Below are positions 44,448 through 58,615 of a DNA stretch of 64,000 nt, one piece after another (position 1 is the stretch's first letter; each line of letters starts with the position of its first letter). A model generated the notes under the pieces. The model saw nothing but the letters and a program-made list of their open reading frames with translations. It ran no database searches and had not been told where the DNA came from. The position numbers were made by a program, and so were the translations under genes. Source of the stretch: Dictyostelium discoideum. Lineage: Eukaryota. The stretch spans positions 288,001 to 352,000 of the forward strand of contig CM000152.2 in NCBI GenBank assembly GCA_000004695.1, given 5' to 3'.

Positions 44448-46836
44448 CTCTCTCCTTATTATTAAATAATAATTATTATTAGCATTTGATTTAAATGGTA
44501 AAAAACCTACCAAAAGTAATGTTGTAAGATTATTATTAAATAGAACTAATTCTGGAAGCAATTTATTATCAAAAAGAAGAACTTCAGAGACAGGAGATGA
44601 TGATAGTAATTCTAGTGTTGGTTTATTGAATAACAGTACTGGTAGTATAGGTAAAATGAATACACCAGAATCATCACCCAAATCATCATATATTCTAAGT
44701 AGTAGTATTGGTAGTGGTGGTAGTGGTGGTGGAGGTGGTAGTAGTGGTAGTCTTCAAAATTTAGATAGTGCTAGTAATAATAGTAGTGGCCCAAGGAGTA
44801 GAAGTGGTAGTCTTGGTAAAAATAATAGTAGCCAACAAAATAATAATAATTTAATATTAGACCCAAATTTTAATAATATTGATAAATCATTATGGACTGT
44901 TAGATCATTAAAAGAACATTCAAATCTTGTTGATATTATGGAAAGAATTAAACCAGCAAGTAGAGCCATTTCATTTGGTCAAATTTATGCAAGTGAAGAA
45001 ACTCAATTTGAATTTGATCCAGTTATTGGTCGTGATAATATTTTACAATTAATTTTACAACATTTACAATTTGAAGGTTTAATGGACTCTAGAAAAATTT
45101 TAGAAGAGGAAGCTAAAATTCAATATCCAGAATATACATTCAATGAATCAAGATTAGTCACCTTATTACGTGCTGTCATAAAAGATTCTGATAAAGTTTT
45201 CGATCTAACTCTAAATGATAGAGATAAAGATTCTCAACAAAAATTAGAAGAACATTTAGCATTCCTTGGTTTATTCAAAGATGAATCTCAAACTAATATG
45301 GTTGAAGATGTAAATATCTATGATGAACCTGAAAATTCAAATATTATATATGTAGATGAAAAAGATAATGATAAACCTTCAAAAGATTCACCAACAACAG
45401 CAACAACAACAACGACAGCAACAACAATTGCACCAAGTACAAGTATTAATAATTTATCAAGTTTATCAGTTAGTATAAGTTCAAATAATATAAATAATAA
45501 TAATAATAATAATAATAATATAAATAATTTAAATAGTACACAATTAATTAGTAATACACAACAACAACAAGCAACACCAAATACACCACCACAAGGTTTA
45601 AAATCAACACAATCAATTACAGGATCAACTGGTACATTAGGACCACAAGTTAAAGCAGCATCATTAAATAAATTAGTAATTTTATTAACACCAGAGAATA
45701 ATCATGATTTAGAGTATACAAAGACATTTTTATTAATGTATCAATCATTTACAACACCAGAGATATTATTACAGAAATTGATTCAACGTTATCATGTACC
45801 ACAAAAGGCAGGTCAATCAGTTGCAGAATGGAGACAACGTTCAACTCATATTCAACTTCGTGTACTAAATGTATTGAAAACTTGGATCAAAGATTATTTC
45901 TCTGATTTCTCTGAAAAGTTAATACTTGCCATTAAATCATTATTGGAATCAATGAGACAAACTGGTAATATGTCTTATGCAAAGGTGATTTCCGATGCCT
46001 TGAATTCAGGTTTAAAGAAAAGTGGTCGTAATAACACGGTTTTCACAGTTTCAGCACCCGAGCCTAAAGTACCTAAAAACATTTGGTCTCACAATTTAGA
46101 CATTTTCTCTGTGGATGAAGAGGAGATCTCTAGACAATTGACCTTGATGGACTTTGAAATCTTTTCAAATATTAAATCAACTGAACTTTTAAATCAGTGT
46201 TGGAATAAACCAAAACTACGTCACCGTTCTCCAAATGTTTTAGAATTAATTGGTCGTTTCAATGAAATCTCTCAATGGACTGCCACTTCGATTCTCTCAT
46301 GGCCCAAGGTTAAAGACAGAGCTAGAATCATGGGTAAATTCATAAAGATCGCTGAATACTGTATGAAGCATTTAAATAATTTCAATACTTCAATGGCAAT
46401 TCTTTCCGGTTTAAACGCTTCCTCAGTGCACAGATTAAAATTCACAAAAGAGGAATTACCAAGACACACTCAACAAGTTTACACAGAGTTACAATTTCAT
46501 CTAAGTTCAGCCCAAGCTTACAAAGAGTATCGTGCTTTATTAGCCAAGGCTAATCCACCATGTTTACCTTATCTTGGTGTTTATTTAACAGATTTAACAT
46601 TCTTTGAAGAAGGTAATCCCGATTTCATTCAAGGTTTTATCAATTTCGGTAAAAGAAAGTTAATCTATGGTTCAATCTCAAATGTTCAAAGTTTTCAAAA
46701 TACAAAATATAATTTACAACCTGTTTATCAAATTGCAAAATTATTAAAAGGTTTTAAACTTTTAGAAGAAAATGAACTTTATACAAGATCAATGTCTTTT
46801 GAACCAAGAAATAAAGAAAGAAGTGAAATTTTATAA
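44007..46836 (+). CDS. Ras guanine-nucleotide exchange factor with a LisH motif, a RasGEF N-terminal (REM) region and a CDC25-homology RasGEF domain. About 820 aa, three exons of 44007..44024, about 44247..44349 and about 44483..46836.
   Basis: An 18-nt first exon (ATGTCAAATCCAGTCTGT, MSNPVC) is followed by a GTATGT donor. Exon 2 starts after a TATAG acceptor (ISNSTNGSSNS..SPISKAS). Exon 3 contains ORF 44626..46836. The LisH motif is ILQLILQHLQFEGLMDSRKILEEEA. The CDC25 domain runs from LTLMDFEIFSNIK to GNPDFI and includes the conserved ..N.....AI...L..S..RL..T...L...... block. Confidence 0.8.
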
Positions 46837-47062: not shown

Positions 47063-47396
47063 TTATTTTGGACAACATTTTTTGTCACATCCACATGTTT
47101 TGTTACATGTGTTTTCACATGAGCATGAAGAGCATTTACATTCTATTTGTTGTTCTTTTGGACATGAACAACTATCTTTACAACAGTTGCAGTTGTCTTT
47201 AGTTTTGCAGCATTTACAACAGTTTGCCTGAATTGTTTATTTCAATAAAAATAATAATAATAAAAAAAATAAAAGAAAATAATAATATTAAGTATTAGTT
47301 TTAAATATTAATGGTTTAGATAATAATATATATAAAAAAAAAAAAAAAAAAAATAAAAGATAAATTAAATATATAATTTTTATGTGAACATACCAT
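47063..47396 (-). CDS. Cysteine-rich metallothionein-like microprotein of 54 aa with 19 Cys. Two exons, the first being ATG alone. The spliced product is M / ANCCKCCKTKDNCNCCKDSCSCPKEQQIECKCSSCSCENTCNKTCGCDKKCCPK.
   Basis: ATG at 47394..47396 is followed immediately by a GTATGT donor. A 164-bp AT-rich intron ends at a TTCAG acceptor at about 47228. Exon 2 is 47227..47063 and is 35% Cys in CC, CxC and CxxC clusters, with no aromatic residues. It is a GC-richer island. Confidence 0.55.
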
Positions 47397-48191
47397 TTTT
47401 TTATTTTTTATTATTATCTGTTTAAAATTTTAATATATTTAAAATGTTTTTTTAAATTTTTTTTTTTCGTTCTTATACTTTTTTTTTTTTCCTTTTTTAT
47501 TAAATGAAAATTTAGTAAAAATTAAAATTAAAATTAAAATTTAATAAAAATCCTTTTTTTGGAAATTTCACCCACATTCTAATATTTTCATAAAAAATAT
47601 TTTCACAATTTAAAAGACACACAAAGAAAGAAACTTTTGGAAATTTGAAAAAAAAAAAAAAAAATAAAAAAAATAAAAAAATAAAAAAAAAATAAAAAAG
47701 TTAATTTTAATATTATAATAAACAATGATACCATATTATTGTAATAATTATAAAATTTGAAATAAATAATATTTTTTTTTAAAATAATATATTATTTTTT
47801 TTTTATTTTAATTTAATATTTTCAGTTTTCTATTTTTATTGTTATTATTATTATTTTTTTTTTTAAAGAAATTTAAAGTTACCAAAATTAGGGAATTTAA
47901 ATTAATCCTGATGAATTGTAAACATTACTTTGATATTAAAATTTTTTTATTATTAACAAAATTGATAAATGAGTGATGGATTATTTTTTATAAGGGAATA
48001 ATTTTTTCATCTTGAATATTAACTGAGAATCTTATTTCTAATTCACCTCTTTCATTCAAAAAATCTTGTAAAACTTTTCTTGATTCTGTAAAACTATTAC
48101 CCAACCCAAATTTCTCGATTCTTCGAAATCTATTAGAAGCAATATTAGTATTAAACATCTTTAAATAAATTTATAATAAAGAGAATATACG

Positions 48192-49549
48192 CTATTTACC
48201 TTGATGATATGGTCCAAATGATATCACAGTGGCAGTTGAATCATCTGGTGGAATTAAAGAAAATGAAAACATATATTTTAAGAGTATATCGGATCTTGTT
48301 TTTCTCATTAAATATATACCAAGCTTTCCTTTATTTCCGGTATTGCCTTTTGGATAAATCCTAATATTAAATTTGTGAGATCCCACTTTAAAAACATTTG
48401 ATTCTTTATATTTTTCATGGGTATATAATGCACTAACACTTCTATAGTCAGGAATAATCCATTTGTTACTGTATTCCATCTCTTTAAAACCATTCTGTTT
48501 CAAAACATTTATTTCCTTTTTCAATTGAGTATAATCACAAAGGAGGATGTTAAGTTTTTGATTAATTTCTTCCATTTTTTTTTCTTGATTTAAAAAACTT
48601 TGATTATCTTTTTTTATTATTTCATTTTGATTCATTAGTTTTGTGACTGAATGTTCTAAAGAGTGAATTTTCATTTTTGATCTAGGAAAAAGTTTTCCAC
48701 ATAAAAATTCTTGACAAATAATATTAATATCAGACAATCATCATTTATATGTTTAGTTTTTGTATCTCTTTTAATCATAATTTTACAATGAGAGCATTCT
48801 ATTAAATATTTTGTGCAATGTGTTTTATGATGATCAGATAATGACGATCTTTGAATATTACTATTACAATATACACATTTTGAATATACTTTTGAACATT
48901 CATTTTGATGTTTGTCTGAATCCTTACTAAAAAACTTAATTAAACATAAATCACATTGCAATATTCTTGATTCACAAACTTTATAATGATTCTCTAATTC
49001 ACTAAATTTCATTACACCATGATTACATAGATCTTGATGTAATGTTTGATTGCTATTATTAATAGCAGGTAAACCCAACATGTTGAGTCTAAATACATTT
49101 TCGTTTGAATTTGGACAAAAAACCAATCTGTCTTTTAACCAATTAGAATATTCATTTTCCAAAAATCTATTTCTTGATAATTCTGAAATAGAAGAAATTG
49201 GTGTTTTACAAGTCATACACTTTTTATTTGTACTTAAATATCTTTCCCAACAACTTCTACAAGCTAAATGACCCTTTTTCCAAAATTATAAATATTATAT
49301 GGTTAGAATAAATAATGTTAGATTATTAATAATATAATTTATATTTACTTCTTTGCATTGAAGAGCTTTTGGTTCACTTCCAATAAATAATTCTAAACTA
49401 CAAATAATACATTCATATTTTTCTTCATCTGAATCAAATAAAATATCTTTTATTTCATATTTAATTGGAATTGCTGTTTGTGTAATTCTTGTTGGAGATG
49501 TTGCGTTGTTTACATGATTTAAAATACCGAACATTTTTTTTAAAGACAT
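48192..49549 (-). pseudogene. Array copy A of the TRAF-like RING/MATH gene. The RING exon is intact (49295..49549), but the main exon is split into two frames (48671..49216 and 48192..48737). This is probably a frameshift pseudogene.
   Basis: Exon 1 encodes ..KYECIICSLELFIGSEPKALQCKE. Exon 2 translates colinearly with copy B up to ..TKHINDDC. A 1-nt length difference relative to copy B at about 48725 then shifts the frame. The TRAF zinc fingers, coiled coil and MATH domain continue in the other frame (MSDINIICQEFLCGK...WIIPDYRSV...IRIYPKGN..). Confidence 0.55.
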
Positions 49550-50476
49550 TAAAAGAACAAATATAATAAAAAAGAAAATTCTAAGACATTAAAAGAACAA
49601 AAATAAAAAAAAAAGAAAAAAAAGAAATATAATAGGAAATGGCAGTTTGTGTTTTTTAAAAAATTTTTTTTTTTAATTACGAAAATAAATTTGATATTTG
49701 ATTTATTTATTATTGATTATCTTGATCAAAATTAAATTAACAAATAATAAATCTTTAAAAATTTAATTGATTAGACCATGTAAAAAAATTAGTATAATAA
49801 AAAAAAAATTAAGATAAAATATTATATTTAATTTTTTATGTGAACATACCATTTTTTTTTTTTAATTTTTTTTATTATCTTTTGTAATATCTTTTAATTG
49901 TTTTTAAAAAATTTTTTTATTCTACTTGAAGTATACTTTTTTTAATTTTTTTATTCCACTTGAAGTATACTTTTTTTAATTTTTTTTTTTTTTTATGAAG
50001 TTTGATATAATATTATAATAAACAAAGATTATTGTAATATTATAAAATTTGAAATAAATAATTTTTTTTTTTTTAAATCAATATATTGTTTTTTATTTTA
50101 ATTTAATATATTTCATTTTATTTTTATTACTATTATTTTTTTCAATCAAATTTAAAGTTACCAAGATAGAGAGTTCGAATTAATCCTGATGAATTATAAA
50201 CATTAGTTTTATATTAAATTTTTTTTATTATTAACAAGACTAATATATGAGCGATCTATTAATTTTTATAAGGGAATAATTTTTTCATCTTGAATAGTAA
50301 TTGAGAAACTTATTTCTAATTCACCTTTTTCATTCAAAAAATCTTTTAAAACCTTTCTTGAATCTGTAAATACATTAGTACCACAACTCAAACTTCTAGA
50401 TTCTTCGAAATCTATTAGAAGCAATATTAGTACTTATTAACTTCTTTAAATAAATTTAAAATAAAGAGAATATAAA

Positions 50477-51827
50477 CTATTTACCTCTATGGATTGGTCC
50501 TAATGATACTTTTGTAGCAGTTGAATCTTCTGGTGGAAGTAAAGAAAATGAAAACATATATTTTAAGAGTATACCATATCTTGGTTTCCTTTCTAAAAAT
50601 ACACCAAACTTTCCTTGTTTTCCGGCTTGACCATTTGGATAAATCTTAATATAAAATGTGTGGGATCCCACTTGAAAATCATTTGAATTTTTACTCTTTT
50701 TATGAGTATATAAAGCATTAAAACTTCTATATTCAGGAATAATCCATTTGTTACTGTATACCATCTCTTTAAAACTGTTCTGTTTCAAAACAGCTATTTC
50801 ATTTTTCAATTGAATATAATTATTAAGGAGGTTGTTAAGTTTTAGTTTAATTTCTTCGATTTTTTTTTCTTGATCCAAATTTTGATTATCTTTTTTTATT
50901 ATTTCATTTTGATTCATTAGTTTTGTGACTGAATGTTCTAAAGAATGAATTTGCATTTTTGATCTAGTAAAACGTTTGCCACATAAATATTCCGAACAAG
51001 TAATCATAATTTCTTCACAATCATCATTTATATGTTTTGTTATTGTATCTCTTTTAATCATAATTTTACAATGAGGGCATTCTATTAAATATTTTGTGCA
51101 ATGTGTTTTATGATGATCAGATAATGATGATCTTAGAATATTACTATTACAAAATTCACATTTTGAATATACTTTTGAACATTCATTTTGATGTTTGTCT
51201 GAATCCTTACTACAAAATTTAATTAAACATAAATTACATTGTAATATTCTTGATTCACAAGCTTTATAATGATTCTGTAATTCACTAAATTTCATTGCAC
51301 CATGATTACATAGATCTTGATGTAATGTTTGATTGCTATTATTAATAGCAGGTAAACCCGACATATTGAGTCTAAATACATTTTCGTTTGAATTTGGACA
51401 AAAAACTAGTCTATCGTTTAACCAATTAGAATATTCTTTTTCCAAGTATCTATTTCTTGATAATTCTGAAATTGAAGAAATTGGTGTTTTACAAGTCATA
51501 CACTGTTTATTTGTGCTTAGATATCTTTCCCAACAACGTCTACAAGCTAAATGACCCTTTATTTAAATGATTTTAATTAAATTATATGGTTAGAATAAAT
51601 ATTGTGATATAATTGATAATTTAATTAATATTTACTTCTTTGCATTGAAGAGCTTTTGGTTCACTTTCAATAAATAATTCTAAAGTACAAATATCACATT
51701 CATACTTTTCTTCATCTGAATCAACTAATATATCTTTTATTTCATATTTAATTGGGATTACTTTTGGTGTAATTTTTGTTGGAGATGTTGGGTTGTTTAT
51801 GTTGTTAATTAGATTTATAAAATCAAG

Positions 51828-51830
<3 letters not shown>
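50477..51830 (-). CDS. Array copy B. This is the intact TRAF-type E3 ligase-like protein, with an N-terminal C3HC4 RING, TRAF-type zinc fingers, a coiled coil and a C-terminal MATH/TRAF-C domain. About 425 aa, two exons of 51830..about 51636 and about 51556..50477.
   Basis: The RING spans the intron (CDICTLEL..EPKALQC / GHLACRRCWERYLSTNKQCMTC). There are three TRAF-ZF units (C..C....H.....C patterns such as CESRILQCNLCLIKFCSKDSDKHQNEC). The MATH signature is WIIPEYRSF..FQVGSHTFYIKIYPNGQAGKQGKFGVFL. A GTAAAT donor and an AAAG acceptor give a 79-bp intron. Confidence 0.8.
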
Positions 51831-51860
<30 letters not shown>

Positions 51861-52299
51861 CTAATAATGAGTATGAACAAAAATTAAAAAATAAAAGAAA
51901 AAAAGAAGAATAATTGGAAATTATGGTGAGTGTTACTGTTTGGAGGATGTTAAAAAAAAAAAAAAAAAAAAAAAAATAAATCAAAAATTAATCGTAATTT
52001 ATTTTAAAAAAAAAAAAAAAAATTTTTTTTCAATTTTGATTTTTGATTTATTATCTAGATTTAAAGCACAATGAAGCAGTTAGGGAATTAATTTTTTTTT
52101 TTTTGGGATATTTTTTTCTTTTTTTGGTGTCACGAAATCAGGAAAATAAAAAAAAATTAAAAATTAAAAATATATATTAATTATTTTTTTTTTTTTTAAT
52201 TTTACATTTTTATATTTTATTTATTTTTATATTTTTATTGTTTTTTTCAATGAAATTTAAAATTTCCAAAAATAGAGCAATTGATAATTTTTTATAATG

Positions 52300-53780
52300 G
52301 AACAGTTTCTTCACCTTTAATATTAATTGTGAAATATAATTCTAGTTCACCCCTTTCATTCAAATAATTTTTTAAAACATTTGTTGAATCTGTAAATTCA
52401 CTAGTACCCCAAAAGAAATTTTTAGATTCATGAAAATCTAATAGAAGCAAAATTAGTATTTTTTTTTTTCATCTTTAAATAAATTAATAAAAATGAGAAT
52501 AAACAGTATTTACCTATATAGCATGGTTTCGATTTAATAATTTTTTTAAAATTTGAATCATTTGGTGGATTTTTAAAAAATAAAATATCATGTGTGCCAT
52601 ATATTGGCTCTCTAACTAATAATACAGCAAACTTTCCATGTTTTTTGGCCCTGCATTTGGATAAATCCTAAGATTAAATTTGTGAGAGCCCACTTTTAAA
52701 AACATTTGAATCTAAGTGCTTTTAATAATTCACTAACCTTTTAATAGTCATGAATAACCCATTTGTTTGTATGTCCTATTTCTTTTAAAACCATTATCTT
52801 TTGTATTAGTTAACCCATTTTGATTCATTAATTTGGCTACTGAATGTTCTAAAGAATGGATTTGTCTTTTTGTTCTCTTAAAACTTTTGCCACATAAATA
52901 TTCTGGACAAAAATCATTATTTCTTCACAATCATCATTTAAATGTTTTGTTTTTGTATCTCTTTCACTCACCATTTTACAATAAGTACATTCTATTGTAG
53001 ATCATCATTATCTGATCATCATAAAACTTATTGTAAAAAAAATTTTTTACAATAAGTTTTATGATGATCAGATAATGATGATCTTATGATATCAGTATTA
53101 CAAAATTCACATTTTAAAAATACTTTTGGACATTCATTTTGATGTTTTTCAGAGTCCATACCAAAAAACTTAACTAAACATAAATTACATTGTAATATTT
53201 CTAGATTCACAATTTTGAATATGTTTCTCTAATTCACTGAATTTCATTACTCCACGAATACACAAATCTTAATGTAATTTTTGATCAATGCTATTATTTT
53301 CATTATTAATAGCAGGAGAACCTAACATGTTGATTCTATATAAATTTTCAATGGAATATGGACAAACAACTAATCTATTTGATAGTCAATCAGAATATTC
53401 ATTTTCAAAAATTCTATTTCTTGATAATTCTGAAATTGGCATTTTACAAATCATACAATCTTTTTTTGTTCTTAAATGACTTTCCCAACAATTTGAACAA
53501 ACTAAATGACCCTTTTTAAAATATATATTTGGTTAGAATAAATGATGTGTTATATTAAATAAAAAAATTGTATATTTACTTCTTTGCATTGAAGAGCACT
53601 TGCATGATTTCCAATAGAATATTCTGAATAATAATTACATTCATATTTTTCTGCATCTGAATCAACTAAAATATCTTTTGTTTCATATTCAATTGAGACT
53701 GTTATTGGTGTAATTTTTGTTGAAGATGTTGTGTTGTTCAAATGATTAAAAATACCAAACATTTTGTTTTTTCCAACCAA
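52300..53780 (-). pseudogene. Array copy C. It is a decayed RING/TRAF/MATH pseudogene with multiple frameshifts and an internal 84-bp palindrome.
   Basis: Only short ORF remnants survive. The RING exon is 53550..53780 (..KYECNYYSEYSIGNHASALQCKE). A TRAF-ZF fragment is 53028..53210 (..ILQCNLCLVKFFGMDSEKHQNEC..DHHKTYCKKF). The MATH region at about 52300..52760 is recognisable only at the DNA level. Confidence 0.5.
53000..53083. repeat. Perfect inverted repeat (palindrome) with 41-nt arms and a 2-nt AA spacer. It is made of TRAF zinc-finger coding sequence inside decayed copy C.
   Basis: GATCATCATTATCTGATCATCATAAAACTTATTGTAAAAAA at 53000..53040 is the exact reverse complement of 53043..53083. 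Confidence 0.85.
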
Positions 53781-53829
53781 AATAAAAAAAAAATAAAAAT
53801 AAAAATAAAAAAGTTCTAGTTCGGAGGAG

Positions 53830-54200
53830 GAAAAAAAAAAAAAAAGAAATCAAAGGAACTTGTTTTTAGTGTGATGGTTTTGAGGATGTTAAAAAAAGAA
53901 ATAAAGTAACTGGTAGTGAGTATTATGGTTTTAAGGGTGTAAAAAATTAAAAAAATAGAAATAAAAGAAATGTTGGTGATTATATAGTTTTAAACTATAT
54001 GGTTTGTAGGATGTGAAAAAAAGAAATAAAAAAAAAGAAATCAAAGAACCGTTGGTGATTTTATAGTTTTATTGTTTTAAGGATTTTAAAAAAAGAAATA
54101 AAATATCTGGTGGTAAATATTATGGTTTTGAGGATGTAAAAAAAAAAAAAAAAAAAGAAATCGAAGGATTTTATAGTTTGCATGAAGTTAAAAAAAAAAA
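53830..54200. repeat. Minisatellite of about six tandem units of 55-65 bp, with consensus roughly AGAAATAAAGNAACTGGTGGTGANTATTATGGTTTTGAGGATGTAAAAAAA. It lies immediately 5' of array copy C. Single copies of the same unit lie 5' of copy B (about 51895..51950) and copy A (about 49625..49665).
   Basis: The repeated blocks all end in ..ATGGTTTT(G/A)AGG(A/G)TGT(T/A)AAAAAA. This is read directly from the sequence. Confidence 0.6.
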
Positions 54201-54269
54201 TTTAAAAAATAAATAAAATTTTTCTCAACTTAATTTTAATTATACAAAATATATTCAACTTATTTTTTA

Positions 54270-54760
54270 ACACTATTGATTAATGGTAAACCCATATTGA
54301 GTCCAAATGTATTTAATTTGGAATATGGACAAACAACTAATCTATTATTTAACCAATTAAAATATTCATTTTCTAAATATCTACTTCTTGATAACATTAA
54401 AATTGATGGAATTGGAGTTCTGCAAATCATACACTCTTTTCTTAAAACTAAACATTTTTCCCAACAACTTTTACAAGCAAAATGACCCTATTTTTTTTTA
54501 AATTATATAAATAAATAATGTAGTGAGTATAATTATTATATTTTAATTATTAGATATGTATGTATTTATTTATTTACTTCTTTGCATTGAAGAGCTTCTG
54601 GTTTTTTCTCATTAATTAACTCTGAATTACAAATATCGCATTCATATTTTATTTCACTTGAATCAACTAATATATCTTTTATTTCATATCTAATTTGGGC
54701 TGGTATTGTTTCAATTTTTGTTGGACCTCTTCTATCCATTAGAGATACGACCCTAATCAT
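54270..54760 (-). pseudogene. Array copy D. It is a truncated 5' fragment with the RING exon and the start of exon 2 only.
   Basis: ORF 54566..54760 encodes ..IKYECDICNSELINEKKPEALQCKE. The antisense ORF 54276..54485 covers the first half of a RING/ZF exon (GHFACKSCWEKCLVLRKECMICRTP..). The unit ends at about 54270 with no TRAF-ZF or MATH part. Confidence 0.45.
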
Positions 54761-54895
54761 TTTTTTTTAAATCCAAAATTGTGTAATTTAAAAATTTAAT
54801 GGCAACTATCAAAAAAAAAAAAAAAAAAAAAAATTAATTTATTTTCGTTCTTCAATATTTAAATTAAAATTGTGTTAAAAGTTAATATATGCTGA

Positions 54896-55670: not shown

Positions 55671-58615
55671 TTAATTTAAAATACCTCTACCAAAATATTC
55701 AGAAACAGTAGTGAAACCATCAGGAGAACTTCTTAATAATTTAAAGAATTGATCATGTTGATTGGCGGAATCAGCTTGTGATCTTTTAATCTCTTGAATT
55801 CTTTTATTAGCACCAGCACAAGAAGGACATTCTCTTTCATTCTCACCGAGACATCTTTGATGGAAAGAATGTTGACATAAAAAGTGAACACTTGGTAAAT
55901 CCAAAGCCAATAGACAAGCGATACATTTAGTTTGTTGGAAAATTTTAGAATTTGTACGAAGTTCGTTGATTTCATGTCTCATCTTTTCAGTCTCATCGGC
56001 GTATTGTCTGATTTGAGTGTAATCCTTATCGATTTGTTGAGTTTCTTGAGACAATCTTCTAGAGATATAATCTTTGATGACGGCCAAAGTGGTATTCTTA
56101 TTTTGTGATAGGATTTGTATTACCAAGAGTGGTGGAATGAGATTCTCCTTATCGATGTTGGTCAACACCTCGATGATCTCATCTTGACAATCCTGTTTAT
56201 TGGTTGAAAAGAATGACAATGCTCTCACCCAAAGGTTTGGATCTTTTACACCATATCTCTTGCAAGCTTTGATCAAGCCATCGTAATCATTATTCTCCAT
56301 ATGGTACTCGATGATCTCATTGAATAACTCTAACTTTTCATATAAATACAATACACCCTCCTTCCAATTATGAACTTGTACTAAAATCAATGCATGATCT
56401 TGATCAAATTTTGATTTTGGATTCGTTAAAAATTCATATGCTTTCGCTTTTCTCTTTATTCTCTCATCATCAGTTTGATTGACATCATCTCTCAAATATA
56501 ACTCTAACAATGTATTATAAATTAATGATGATTCATTATTACCTTGTTGTACCATATATTCTAAAAATTTAACTAACCAATCTGCTTGTGATACAAAAAT
56601 ATGAATAAATTCTTCTGGTGCTGATTTTTGTTTAAATCCAATATTATTATTATTATTATTATTATTATTTTGATTATTATTATTACTATTATTATTTTGA
56701 TTATTATTATTTGTTACATTTGTTACAGTTGTTGTTGTTGTTGTTTGATTACTAATTGTTAAACCATTTAAATTTAAAGCTGTTAAAGAATCAAAAGCTT
56801 GAACTGGTTGATAATTTGTACATAATTTCATTAAGACACCAGTAGTTTCTTCAGGAATTTCAGAGACTAATTGTTTACCATATTTTTTAAGATTTTTATC
56901 AGCTTCTTCCCAATCAAGTGTTTGAATGTAATCTAAAGCTTTTCTATATTCATTGAGATCCTCCAAGAGAATTTTAAGATACCAATCGTGACGACTATGT
57001 TTTGATGCTAAAAAGAGTGCACGATCGAAATAACCACCTTGACGACAAACTTTAATTGCTGTCTCGACATCGAATGTACCATTGTCTGTCATAATGAAAT
57101 GATCGAGTTTCTTTACATCCTTTAATTTGGTATAACAATTCAAGAGTAGTGTAGTGTGGTTGGCTGTGGCTAAATTCTTCTCATGCAATGCTTGAATGTA
57201 TGATGTAAGATTATGAATTCTTTGAGCGTCCAAGAACTTTCTAATGACATAAGATGGCTCCAACTGACCAATCGTGCAAAGGTATTGGGTGATGGCGCCG
57301 TCGTAGTCGCCCTTGGCATACAACCTGTCGCCATACTCCCTATAGACGTCTGCAATGGCACTATTGTCATAATGCTGTGACTTTGCTAAATCGATAGCCA
57401 CTTGATATGAATGCTTCTTAAACAAGGTTTCCAACTTGGTTTGTGTGTCTTTCTCCTCCAATTGAAACACCTTACCATCGGCACCAAATATGAAAATTGA
57501 GCCCCACTCACTGCAAATATGAGACACTGTATCGAACTTCTCTGTGAAACCAATATATTTATTCTTTAAATCATAGATATTCAATACATTGTTTTTCGTG
57601 TTTTGCACCATAACCGATGGCGACCCAATACTACCTGTCTGACTACCCAACCCACCTATGCTATTCTGTCCGCCTACCACAGCACCTGGGAACAAGGCAT
57701 TGGTGTTGTTAGTGTCATATCCAATCACTACCAAATAGGAACGGAACCACAGCACTTTGGTCTTCACACCTGTGAAACCAAAACACGGTCCTCTTCCATC
57801 CACATTATAGAAATAAATTGCATCTGATCTTGCTATAATTGGCGACCCATCGTCACTCATTAAAAACGAGCCGATGTCACCCCCCTCATCGTCTATTATC
57901 GTCTCTTGATCTTTATGTGCTGTATGATAGGTTATAACATGTGTTGTTGTCACTACAAACAACACTGCACCCGCACTCGCACTCTGTTGACTCTTTGTTG
58001 GGAAAAACCCTAACCCTGTAATTGGCGAATCGTTTGGTACTTTGATAATCTTTTGTTTAATAACTTTATCTCTAAATATATCTGCTCTAATTATAATGAT
58101 TTCACCATTTGCTAAACCAACGATAATCTGTGACAAATCTTCCAACAATGTGAAACATGTTACTGTAACTGATTTCTCTAATTTAATAGATCTAACACAA
58201 ATTGGTTGTTCATTCTTATCAGTTTTATCAAGATTCCAAATTTTTAAGATTGCTGCACCACCAATATCATCATGACCAACTGAAGAAAGGAAATTTCTCT
58301 CCTTTAATTGATAAATTAATGATACTGATTGTTGATATGCTTGAAATGATGATATTCCAAATTCTCTATCTACAAAATTAATAAAACCTTCTGCATCACC
58401 AATAATTAAACTACCACGACCACTAGTTGTACATGTAATTGATAATTTCTTTTTTTTTTTCAATAATAATAATAATAGTAAAAAATAAATTAGTATTAAA
58501 TTCTTATTAATATTATTTTTTTGTGAATACATACTTGTAACGAAGATCCATCTTCTTTTTCAACCTGTTTTACAGTCTCAATATCAAAGAATGTGAATCT
58601 CTTCCAATTATTCAT
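55671..58615 (-). CDS. vps11: Vacuolar protein sorting-associated protein 11 (VPS11/PEP5), a HOPS/CORVET class C core subunit. About 953 aa, two exons of about 58615..58535 and about 58448..55671.
   Basis: Exon 1 is MNNWKRFTFFDIETVKQVEKEDGSSLQ, with a GTATGT donor. Exon 2 begins KLSITCTTSGRGSLIIGDAEGFINF. These match the metazoan VPS11 N-terminus (RRFVFFDKE..SGRGSLVFGDMEG.IWF). A long block of near-identity to the VPS11 central region is present (YREYGDRLYAKGDYDGAITQYLCTIGQLEPSYVIRKFLDAQRIHNLTSYIQALHEKNLATANHTTLLLNCYTKLKD). The C-terminus is a RING-H2 (CIACLLALDLPSVHFLCQHSFHQRCL...CPSC). Confidence 0.9.

Follow-up and report, generated by a model that had tools for sequence, protein, structure and literature searches.

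The 64-kb stretch of Dictyostelium discoideum AX4 chromosome 3 analysed here (GenBank contig CM000152.2, positions 288,001 to 352,000; hereafter the window, with all coordinates counted from its first nucleotide) contains a tandem array of four TRAF-like units, denoted A to D, which are arranged head-to-tail, all on the minus strand, and are flanked by vps11 and a RasGEF gene (Table 1). In a self-comparison of the window, the units are connected by extended colinear identity, in agreement with the four homologous, head-to-tail, minus-strand units recognized in the preliminary description of this DNA. Copies A and B are 88% identical at the nucleotide level over 1,820 nt (47708-49512 vs 50008-51799), copy C shares ~76% identity with both A and B over ~1.0-1.1 kb and a further ~0.54 kb at ~73%, and copy D is 77% identical to B over 461 nt and 70.5% identical to C over 431 nt. 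A tblastn search with B as the query detected no fifth copy in the window. The units are not the uniform blocks of about 2.46 kb that had been proposed: the spacing is uneven, with 2,283-2,455 nt between A and B, 1,908-2,026 nt between B and C, and 967 nt between C and D, and 2.46 kb applies only to the outermost match between the A and B flanks. Homology detected by blastn self-comparison extends into the 3' flanks (47341-47490 to 49796-49950 and 47778-47891 to 52164-52275) and into the 5' flank (51893-51966 to 53831-53905), the latter in line with the earlier observation that the units carry their own 5' flank. Thus, whole units were duplicated, beyond the coding sequence alone. Protein look-ups show that copies A, B and D are already annotated as genes.

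We compared the array with five other assemblies, all of which contain the interval between vps11 and the RasGEF gene, namely, AX2 and the assemblies ACTFIR, ACTFIW, ACTFIY and ACTFIZ. Most likely, these assemblies derive from the study of Holland et al. (PNAS 2025; PMC12745789), which covers AX2-214, two D. discoideum isolates from the tropics and two putative cryptic species.

Table 1 Features of the TRAF-like array of AX4 and its borders, in window coordinates
Feature	Position	Strand	Basis and details
RasGEF-domain boundary gene	44626..46836	+	open reading frame (ORF); RasGEF_N and RasGEF Pfam matches on orthologues; right-hand array neighbour in 5/5 other genomes
3' flank of unit A	47341..47985	-	partial homology to the 3' flanks of B (49796-49950, 50008-50264) and C (52164-52275), blastn
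Copy A, recent pseudogene (DDB_G0278131)	47988..49534	-	splice-site homology with B
Copy A exons	exon 1 49534..49349; exon 2 49273..48200; exon 3 48129..47988	-	homology with B
Copy A introns	intron 1 49348..49274; intron 2 48199..48130	-	homology with B
Copy A lesion 1	48732..48733	-	1 nt deleted from exon 2 (codon 246 in the intact orthologue), directly before the last zinc finger; frameshift, stop at 48671
Copy A lesion 2	~48099..48107	-	indel in exon 3 (MATH); -4 nt vs B, +2 nt vs intact A orthologue
Copy B, intact gene (DDB_G0278133, UniProt Q54YP8)	50266..51830	-	spliced translation, 470 aa
Copy B exons	exon 1 51830..51636; exon 2 51556..50485; exon 3 50411..50266, including stop	-	spliced translation
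Copy B introns, GT..AG	intron 1 51635..51557; intron 2 50484..50412	-	spliced translation
Copy C, old pseudogene	52293..53762	-	alignment, lesion list, fragmented tblastn matches in three frames
Near-perfect palindrome inside copy C	52999..53084	.	86 bp; matches its own reverse complement at 97.7% over 86 nt
Amplified repeat from the 5' flank, between D and C	53839..54200	-	unit ~51-70 nt; TRF period 51; blastn 53833-53990 vs 54024-54179
Copy D, truncated 5' part of divergent paralogue (DDB_G0278139, UniProt Q54YP5)	54260..54760	-	ORF and splice model
Copy D parts	exon 1 54760..54578; intron 54577..54488 (GT..AG, 90 nt); exon 2 54487..54260	-	ORF and splice model
vps11 boundary gene	55671..58532	-	ORF; VPS11 Pfam families on orthologues; homologues named Vps11; conserved left-hand array neighbour

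In the AX4/AX2 lineage, copy B alone encodes a full-length protein. The product of its three exons, 470 amino acids (aa) long, is 100% identical to GenBank KAM9948733.1 and shares a 90% cluster with Q54YP8, which is named 'TNF receptor-associated factor family protein DDB_G0278133' in UniProt. The AX4 model of this gene in UniProt has 477 aa, and the sole difference is an extra 'VLILLLI' at the intron-2 junction. The positions of the two introns are identical in every intact copy and relative and, because the 470-aa model agrees with the conserved intron positions of all orthologues, the 477-aa reference model probably uses a wrong splice acceptor. The preliminary description was right that copy B is intact but placed it at 50477..51830; the true end is at 50266, and exon 3 had been missed because the first reading ended with a stop codon within intron 2.

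The predicted RING of copy B occupies residues 45-87, with all eight metal ligands present in the pattern C-x2-C-x14-C-x3-H-x2-C-x2-C-x10-C-x2-C; these eight ligands, together with those of the zinc fingers, are invariant among six family proteins. In Pfam, the RING models match weakly and stay under their curated threshold (zf-RING_2, E = 6.7e-4), zf-TRAF exceeds its cut-off of 27 with 33.3 bits, and MATH_2 (E = 1e-6, 29.5 bits) falls slightly below the cut-off of 32. Both zf-TRAF and MATH_2 are matched by all six family proteins, with best E values of 2e-12 and 4.8e-11, respectively. We then relied on a family profile, a 37-sequence alignment with copy B in the first row, both for searching the PDB and for AlphaFold2 modelling. 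This profile matched the RING-zinc finger part of TRAF6 (4e-20), the MATH domains of SPOP (1e-15) and USP7 (2e-9), and RING structures (1e-9 to 1e-17); PDB searches with a single sequence or six sequences yielded only weak RING and zinc-finger matches, and a second homologue search with the alignment retrieved no additional relatives. The AlphaFold2 model of copy B has a mean predicted local distance difference test score (pLDDT) of 83; a model built on a six-sequence alignment was discarded (pLDDT 47.7). Foldseek aligned residues 330-467 of the model with the SPOP MATH domain (TM score 0.79, E = 1.6e-9) and also found the N-terminal domain of TRAF6 (3hcs_A, E = 7e-9). Long helices span residues 263-289 and 294-325 of this monomer model, with a low-confidence break at 285-294. 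The sequence profiles and this confident model together show that copy B combines a RING and four TRAF zinc fingers with a long helix and, at the C terminus, a MATH domain. The RING, TRAF fingers and MATH domain named in the preliminary description are recovered by the domain search, the family profile and the model, and a long helix is seen where a coiled coil had been proposed; the number of fingers had been given as three, and there are four complete CCHC/CCHH fingers, at residues 172-273, along with a possible degenerate one at 148-165.

Copy A is annotated as a truncated product of 262 aa, an exact match to EAL68238.1 / XP_642153.1, and the end of this product is the stop codon that follows lesion 1. 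Lesions were called in a four-way alignment of the A and B copies of AX4 and ACTFIR (AX4_A, FIR_A, AX4_B and FIR_B) combined with homology threading. The single 1-nt frameshift in the zinc-finger region by which copy A had been said to differ from B is confirmed in the alignment with B, but it is joined by a second frameshift in exon 3. At the site of this second lesion, the intact ACTFIR orthologue of copy A carries an in-frame change of -6 nt relative to B, and if lesion 1 were repaired, translation of the AX4 copy would still meet a TGA at 48058..48056 via lesion 2. A cryptic intron bypassing the first frameshift was considered and rejected, given that, on our reading of the sequence, the sole GT..AG pair nearby delimits ~26 nt and is too short. 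The ACTFIR orthologue is a complete gene of 469 aa (P0009), and ACTFIW retains just a 5' fragment of copy A. Comparison of AX4 copy A with its intact orthologue gives a ratio of non-synonymous to synonymous divergence (dN/dS) of 0.50, which differs from neutrality (p = 0.004) and indicates that most of the divergence accumulated under constraint and that inactivation was recent. Copy A is a recently inactivated pseudogene with two small indels. Two short tandem repeats lie in the spacer between B and A: at 49543-49619, a 40-nt unit repeats the start region of copy A, giving candidate ATGs at 49549 and 49534, and at 49910-49986, a 34-nt unit is present in 2.3 copies at 97% identity.

Copy C is far more degraded, and here the preliminary description, in which C and D were progressively decayed, holds. 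A cysteine of the RING is lost (CDIC -> CN-YY), in-frame stop codons occur at 53388 (TGA), 53271 (TAA) and 52743 (TAA), there are several frameshifts besides, and ~100 nt of the coiled-coil region are deleted. The annotation of the AX2 assembly contains only fragments of 102, 101 and 111 aa at this position. Copy C is a long-dead pseudogene. It is absent from ACTFIR, and only an exon-3 remnant is left in ACTFIW. The palindrome inside copy C originates from an inverted duplication in which 41 nt of the coding sequence just before it were copied and inserted at B codon 222 (columns 863-903 of the alignment of the copies), a type of lesion that is expected from a fold-back or template-switch replication error. 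ACTFIR and ACTFIW, two wild isolates of D. discoideum, share an AT-rich spacer of ~2.4 kb between the D-type gene and B (L001 7089-9560 and L004 11598-14310), with 19% G+C and no ORF of at least 70 aa; AX4 has no counterpart of this spacer, with pseudogene C in its place.

As for copy D, the same description does not apply: it is a cleanly truncated, older paralogue with an intact ORF. The reading frame of 136 aa, with an intact start, includes a complete RING and no other domain, and its product exactly matches XP_642157.1 (Q54YP5 is named 'RING-type domain-containing protein'). Copy D belongs to the same 90% cluster as full-length proteins of 455 aa (ACTFIW) and 458 aa (ACTFIR), and its nucleotide identity to the respective genes is 94%. 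The D-type genes form a separate clade with ~65% identity to A and B and a synonymous divergence (dS) of ~0.58; the low identity between B and D is therefore a consequence of old paralogy rather than decay, given the 94% identity that D shares with intact orthologues. The full-length orthologues can be aligned with copy D as far as 54269, seven bases ahead of the stop codon, and no remnants of the D-type 3' part were found downstream of this breakpoint; a single deletion therefore took the zinc fingers, the coiled-coil region and the MATH domain. The retained part shows a dN/dS of 0.20 (9 non-synonymous and 10 synonymous changes; p = 0.0008), a value that includes the intact lineage and the time before truncation and so is no proof that the fragment functions.

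Given that the window has a G+C content of ~22% and that the array region is 78% A+T with many homopolymers, the lesions of copy A and the truncation of copy D could be assembly or sequencing artefacts in repetitive AT-rich DNA, the genes being intact in reality. The 15 kb around the array are 99.5% identical to CM142509.1, an independent AX2 assembly based on Nanopore and Illumina reads (ACTFIT_ tags), and the 9 small gaps between the two assemblies could be taken to favour this explanation. However, there are only 2 mismatches in these 15 kb, and the AX2 assembly repeats the split of copy A into 262 aa and 127 aa, the fragmentation of copy C and the 136-aa copy D; moreover, neither lesion of copy A lies in a long homopolymer. 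We consider an artefact extremely improbable.

The composition of the array varies between genomes. In AX4 and AX2, D is truncated, C is dead, B is intact and A is dead. In ACTFIR, the D-type gene is intact, C is absent, and both B and A are intact. ACTFIW has intact D-type and B genes, of C only the exon-3 remnant and of A only the 5' fragment. Of the two genomes labelled cf. discoideum, ACTFIY carries a frameshifted D-type gene and two genes of the A/B type, one frameshifted and one intact, and ACTFIZ carries an intact D-type gene and one intact gene of the A/B type, plus fragments. Hence, the ACTFIR wild isolate keeps three full-length genes, two of which have been lost in AX4/AX2.

The same comparison dates the duplications. 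In a neighbour-joining tree, A, B and D form separate clades across the three D. discoideum genomes. Within the quartet of AX4_A, AX4_B, FIR_A and FIR_B, orthology is favoured by 121 informative sites, grouping within genomes by 6 and the third topology by 1. Together, these site counts and the cross-genome clades imply that the duplications are older than the split of the sampled isolates, which is the outcome of the cross-strain comparison that had been suggested for dating them. Recent gene conversion between A and B was rejected on the same counts (6 vs 121 sites). No recent gain of copies is apparent either: none of the six genomes contains extra or near-identical copies, and the closest within-genome pair is 88-89% identical. 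All differences between the genomes are deletions, truncations or frameshifts, that is, only losses have occurred since the isolates split.

These observations bear directly on the reading offered in the preliminary description, namely, that the family is currently expanding at this array by recurrent unequal crossing-over, with new copies decaying progressively along a gradient from young to old. The head-to-tail units with their flanking DNA, the 88% identity of A and B, the most similar pair, and the different degrees of damage among the copies all fit such a process. It is nevertheless very unlikely that the array is expanding now: the A/B duplication predates the split between AX4 and ACTFIR, orthologues of A, B and D occupy matching positions in other genomes, no genome has additional young copies, the genomes differ by losses only, and the low identity of D to B reflects ancient paralogy. 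Nor do the copies form a gradient of decay, because D comes from a different, older lineage and was cut by a single deletion, C is old and dead, and A died recently. What stands from that reading are tandem units that include flanks and, among them, pseudogenes.

Very probably, the locus is a long-established tandem array whose four paralogous genes for TRAF-like E3 ligases were duplicated before the isolates split and have since evolved by birth and death under weak constraint, with lineage-specific losses. Whole units, consisting of the gene and parts of both flanks, were duplicated head-to-tail in at least three rounds, most simply by unequal crossing-over. The D-type split off first (dS ~0.58), followed by C, and A and B separated last (dS ~0.15-0.2), all before the sampled D. 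discoideum isolates diverged. After duplication, different members were lost in each lineage; in AX4, two indels recently inactivated copy A, copy C died long ago, and one deletion cut copy D while its 136-aa frame stayed open and spliceable.

Several points weigh against this scenario. The dN/dS of 0.73 between AX4_B and FIR_B is indistinguishable from neutrality (Fisher p = 0.18). The A/B-type copies of the cf. discoideum genomes do not sort cleanly as A or B, so that independent duplication or an older conversion is possible there, and the orthology of copy C to copies in these two genomes is not settled by the identity matrix or the neighbour-joining tree. Finally, the central zinc-finger region contains few fixed differences between A and B; a conversion tract of older date, or tighter constraint on this region, may be the cause.

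The neighbourhood of vps11 in D. purpureum contains no TRAF gene, and synteny is broken there; the closest relatives in D. citrinum are at a non-syntenic locus. When 1.8 billion representative proteins were scanned exhaustively with HMMER, no relatives with more than 35% identity were found outside the discoideum-clade genomes. The nearest relatives, DDB_G0272340 (DdTRAFg) and DDB_G0277243 (DdTRAFf), are 31-35% identical to B and are themselves at least 90% conserved across five Dictyostelium species, so the array subfamily is unusually fast-evolving for Dictyostelium TRAF genes. D. citrinum harbours, at an unrelated locus (L006 10001-13378), a head-to-tail pair of full-length TRAF-like genes of 442 and 445 aa with ~29% identity to B, suggesting that tandem arrangement is common in the family.

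The dN/dS of the array genes is 0.50-0.73, with dN of ~0.06-0.14; between the same pairs of genomes, the two border genes have dN/dS values of 0.03-0.05 (vps11) and 0.08-0.23 (RasGEF), with dN of ~0.005-0.011. The longer comparisons of array genes reject neutrality (p = 0.0008-0.007). That copy B is functional is suggested by its intact ORF in three genomes, the conserved metal ligands and constraint that is significant in the longer comparisons only. No block shows a dN/dS convincingly above 1, and positive selection was rejected as a finding: the top value, 1.38, comes from the zinc-finger block of one pair and rests on 4.5 synonymous changes.

A different explanation for the fast evolution is that the locus is polymorphic under diversifying or balancing selection, for example, in cell-autonomous immunity, so that both the rapid change and the presence or absence of genes are adaptive, and the RING-only copy D is kept as a regulator or decoy. 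A non-synonymous divergence roughly 10-fold higher than in the flanking genes (dN 0.085 vs 0.007) would fit this explanation, as would the contrast between the conservation of DDB_G0272340 and DDB_G0277243 and the absence of close relatives of the array subfamily outside the discoideum clade, the ORF, splice sites and low dN/dS that copy D retains, and the activity of the TRAF-like TrafE in anti-mycobacterial defence (PMC10181826). However, no region has a dN/dS significantly greater than 1, the repeated pseudogenization in every lineage is what relaxed constraint predicts, and most of the low dN/dS of copy D comes from the intact lineage and the time before truncation; overall, we regard selection of this kind as rather unlikely. 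The more specific proposal of a presence/absence polymorphic defence or conflict locus, at which isolates would deploy different sets of TRAF-like E3s and the RING-only D would modulate the full-length ligases, for instance, by competing for E2 or forming heterodimers, appears distinctly doubtful. Relaxed constraint is the favoured cause of the fast evolution of the subfamily because of the repeated pseudogenization, and conflict is a reasonable but unproven candidate.

The repeat upstream of copy C (Table 1) carries five copies of the motif ACATCCTYMAAACMR, and a sixth copy is located at 51936-51950, 120 nt upstream of the ATG of B. These 6 occurrences in the 64-kb window, where 0.15 are expected, are all in the 5' flanks of the array and on the strand of the genes. 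Two other genomes (loci L004 and L002) also have the motif, at 80-270 nt upstream of their array genes. It is absent upstream of AX4 copy A and, with up to one mismatch allowed, from 2 of the 5 other genomes. The motif may belong to a promoter, or it may be no more than a piece of flank that was amplified.

Synonymous divergence differs about three-fold between the two genes that border the array, with a dS of 0.13 for vps11 and 0.04 for the RasGEF gene between AX4 and ACTFIR, and the same ratio is repeated between AX4 and ACTFIY. Codon bias, local mutation rate or distinct haplotype histories on either side of the array are candidate causes of this difference. A tRNA scan identified no tRNA genes in the window and, accordingly, there is no context for tRNA-targeted retroelements.

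Copy B and the intact A and D orthologues share the RING / TRAF zinc finger / MATH architecture of the Dictyostelium TRAF-like family, which has more than 40 predicted members, and the coiled-coil position of this architecture is occupied by the long helices in the model of B. Sixteen members with RING, zinc finger as well as TRAF domains have been named DdTRAFa-p (PMC5758549). DDB_G0278133 is not among these 16, and the named members nearest to it, DdTRAFg and DdTRAFf, differ from the array genes both in sequence and in their conservation across species. None of the five gene identifiers looked up is mentioned in the literature that we searched. TrafE, the characterized TRAF-like member in D. 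discoideum, is recruited to mycobacterial vacuoles and to endolysosomes that have been damaged (PMC10181826). Human TRAF6, a RING E3 in which five zinc fingers and a coiled coil precede the TRAF-C/MATH domain, has the same domain order as copy B, but the two proteins are only ~17-18% identical where they align, SPOP and not a TRAF-C domain gives the best structural match to the MATH domain of B, and copy B shows one degenerate finger in addition to four clear ones. To our knowledge, amoebae lack a TNF-receptor pathway. An E3-ligase function of copy B is suggested by its family membership; by analogy with TRAF6 and TrafE, it might act as an oligomeric RING E3 ligase, in which the MATH domain would select partners, the RING would recruit E2 and the helices would mediate oligomerization.

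Among tandem families that evolve by birth and death, the tgr genes for allorecognition in Dictyostelium, of which AX4 has 38 along with 26 pseudogenes (PMC12745789), also form a tandem cluster in which full-length genes, truncated fragments and pseudogenes vary between isolates. The TRAF-like array differs in being far smaller (four positions) and in having undergone only losses since the isolates split, with no evidence of a hypermutable hotspot or ongoing gain.

With its genes already annotated and the expansion of the family already in the literature, the array is a biologically ordinary tandem cluster of little significance beyond housekeeping. There is a consequence for annotation: both A (262 aa), a pseudogene with two frameshifts, and D (136 aa), the relic of a truncated gene, are listed in the reference as normal protein-coding genes. 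The array is also relevant to studies of TRAF-like ligases in Dictyostelium immunity, because the laboratory strain lacks two of the three full-length genes that are kept by a wild isolate.

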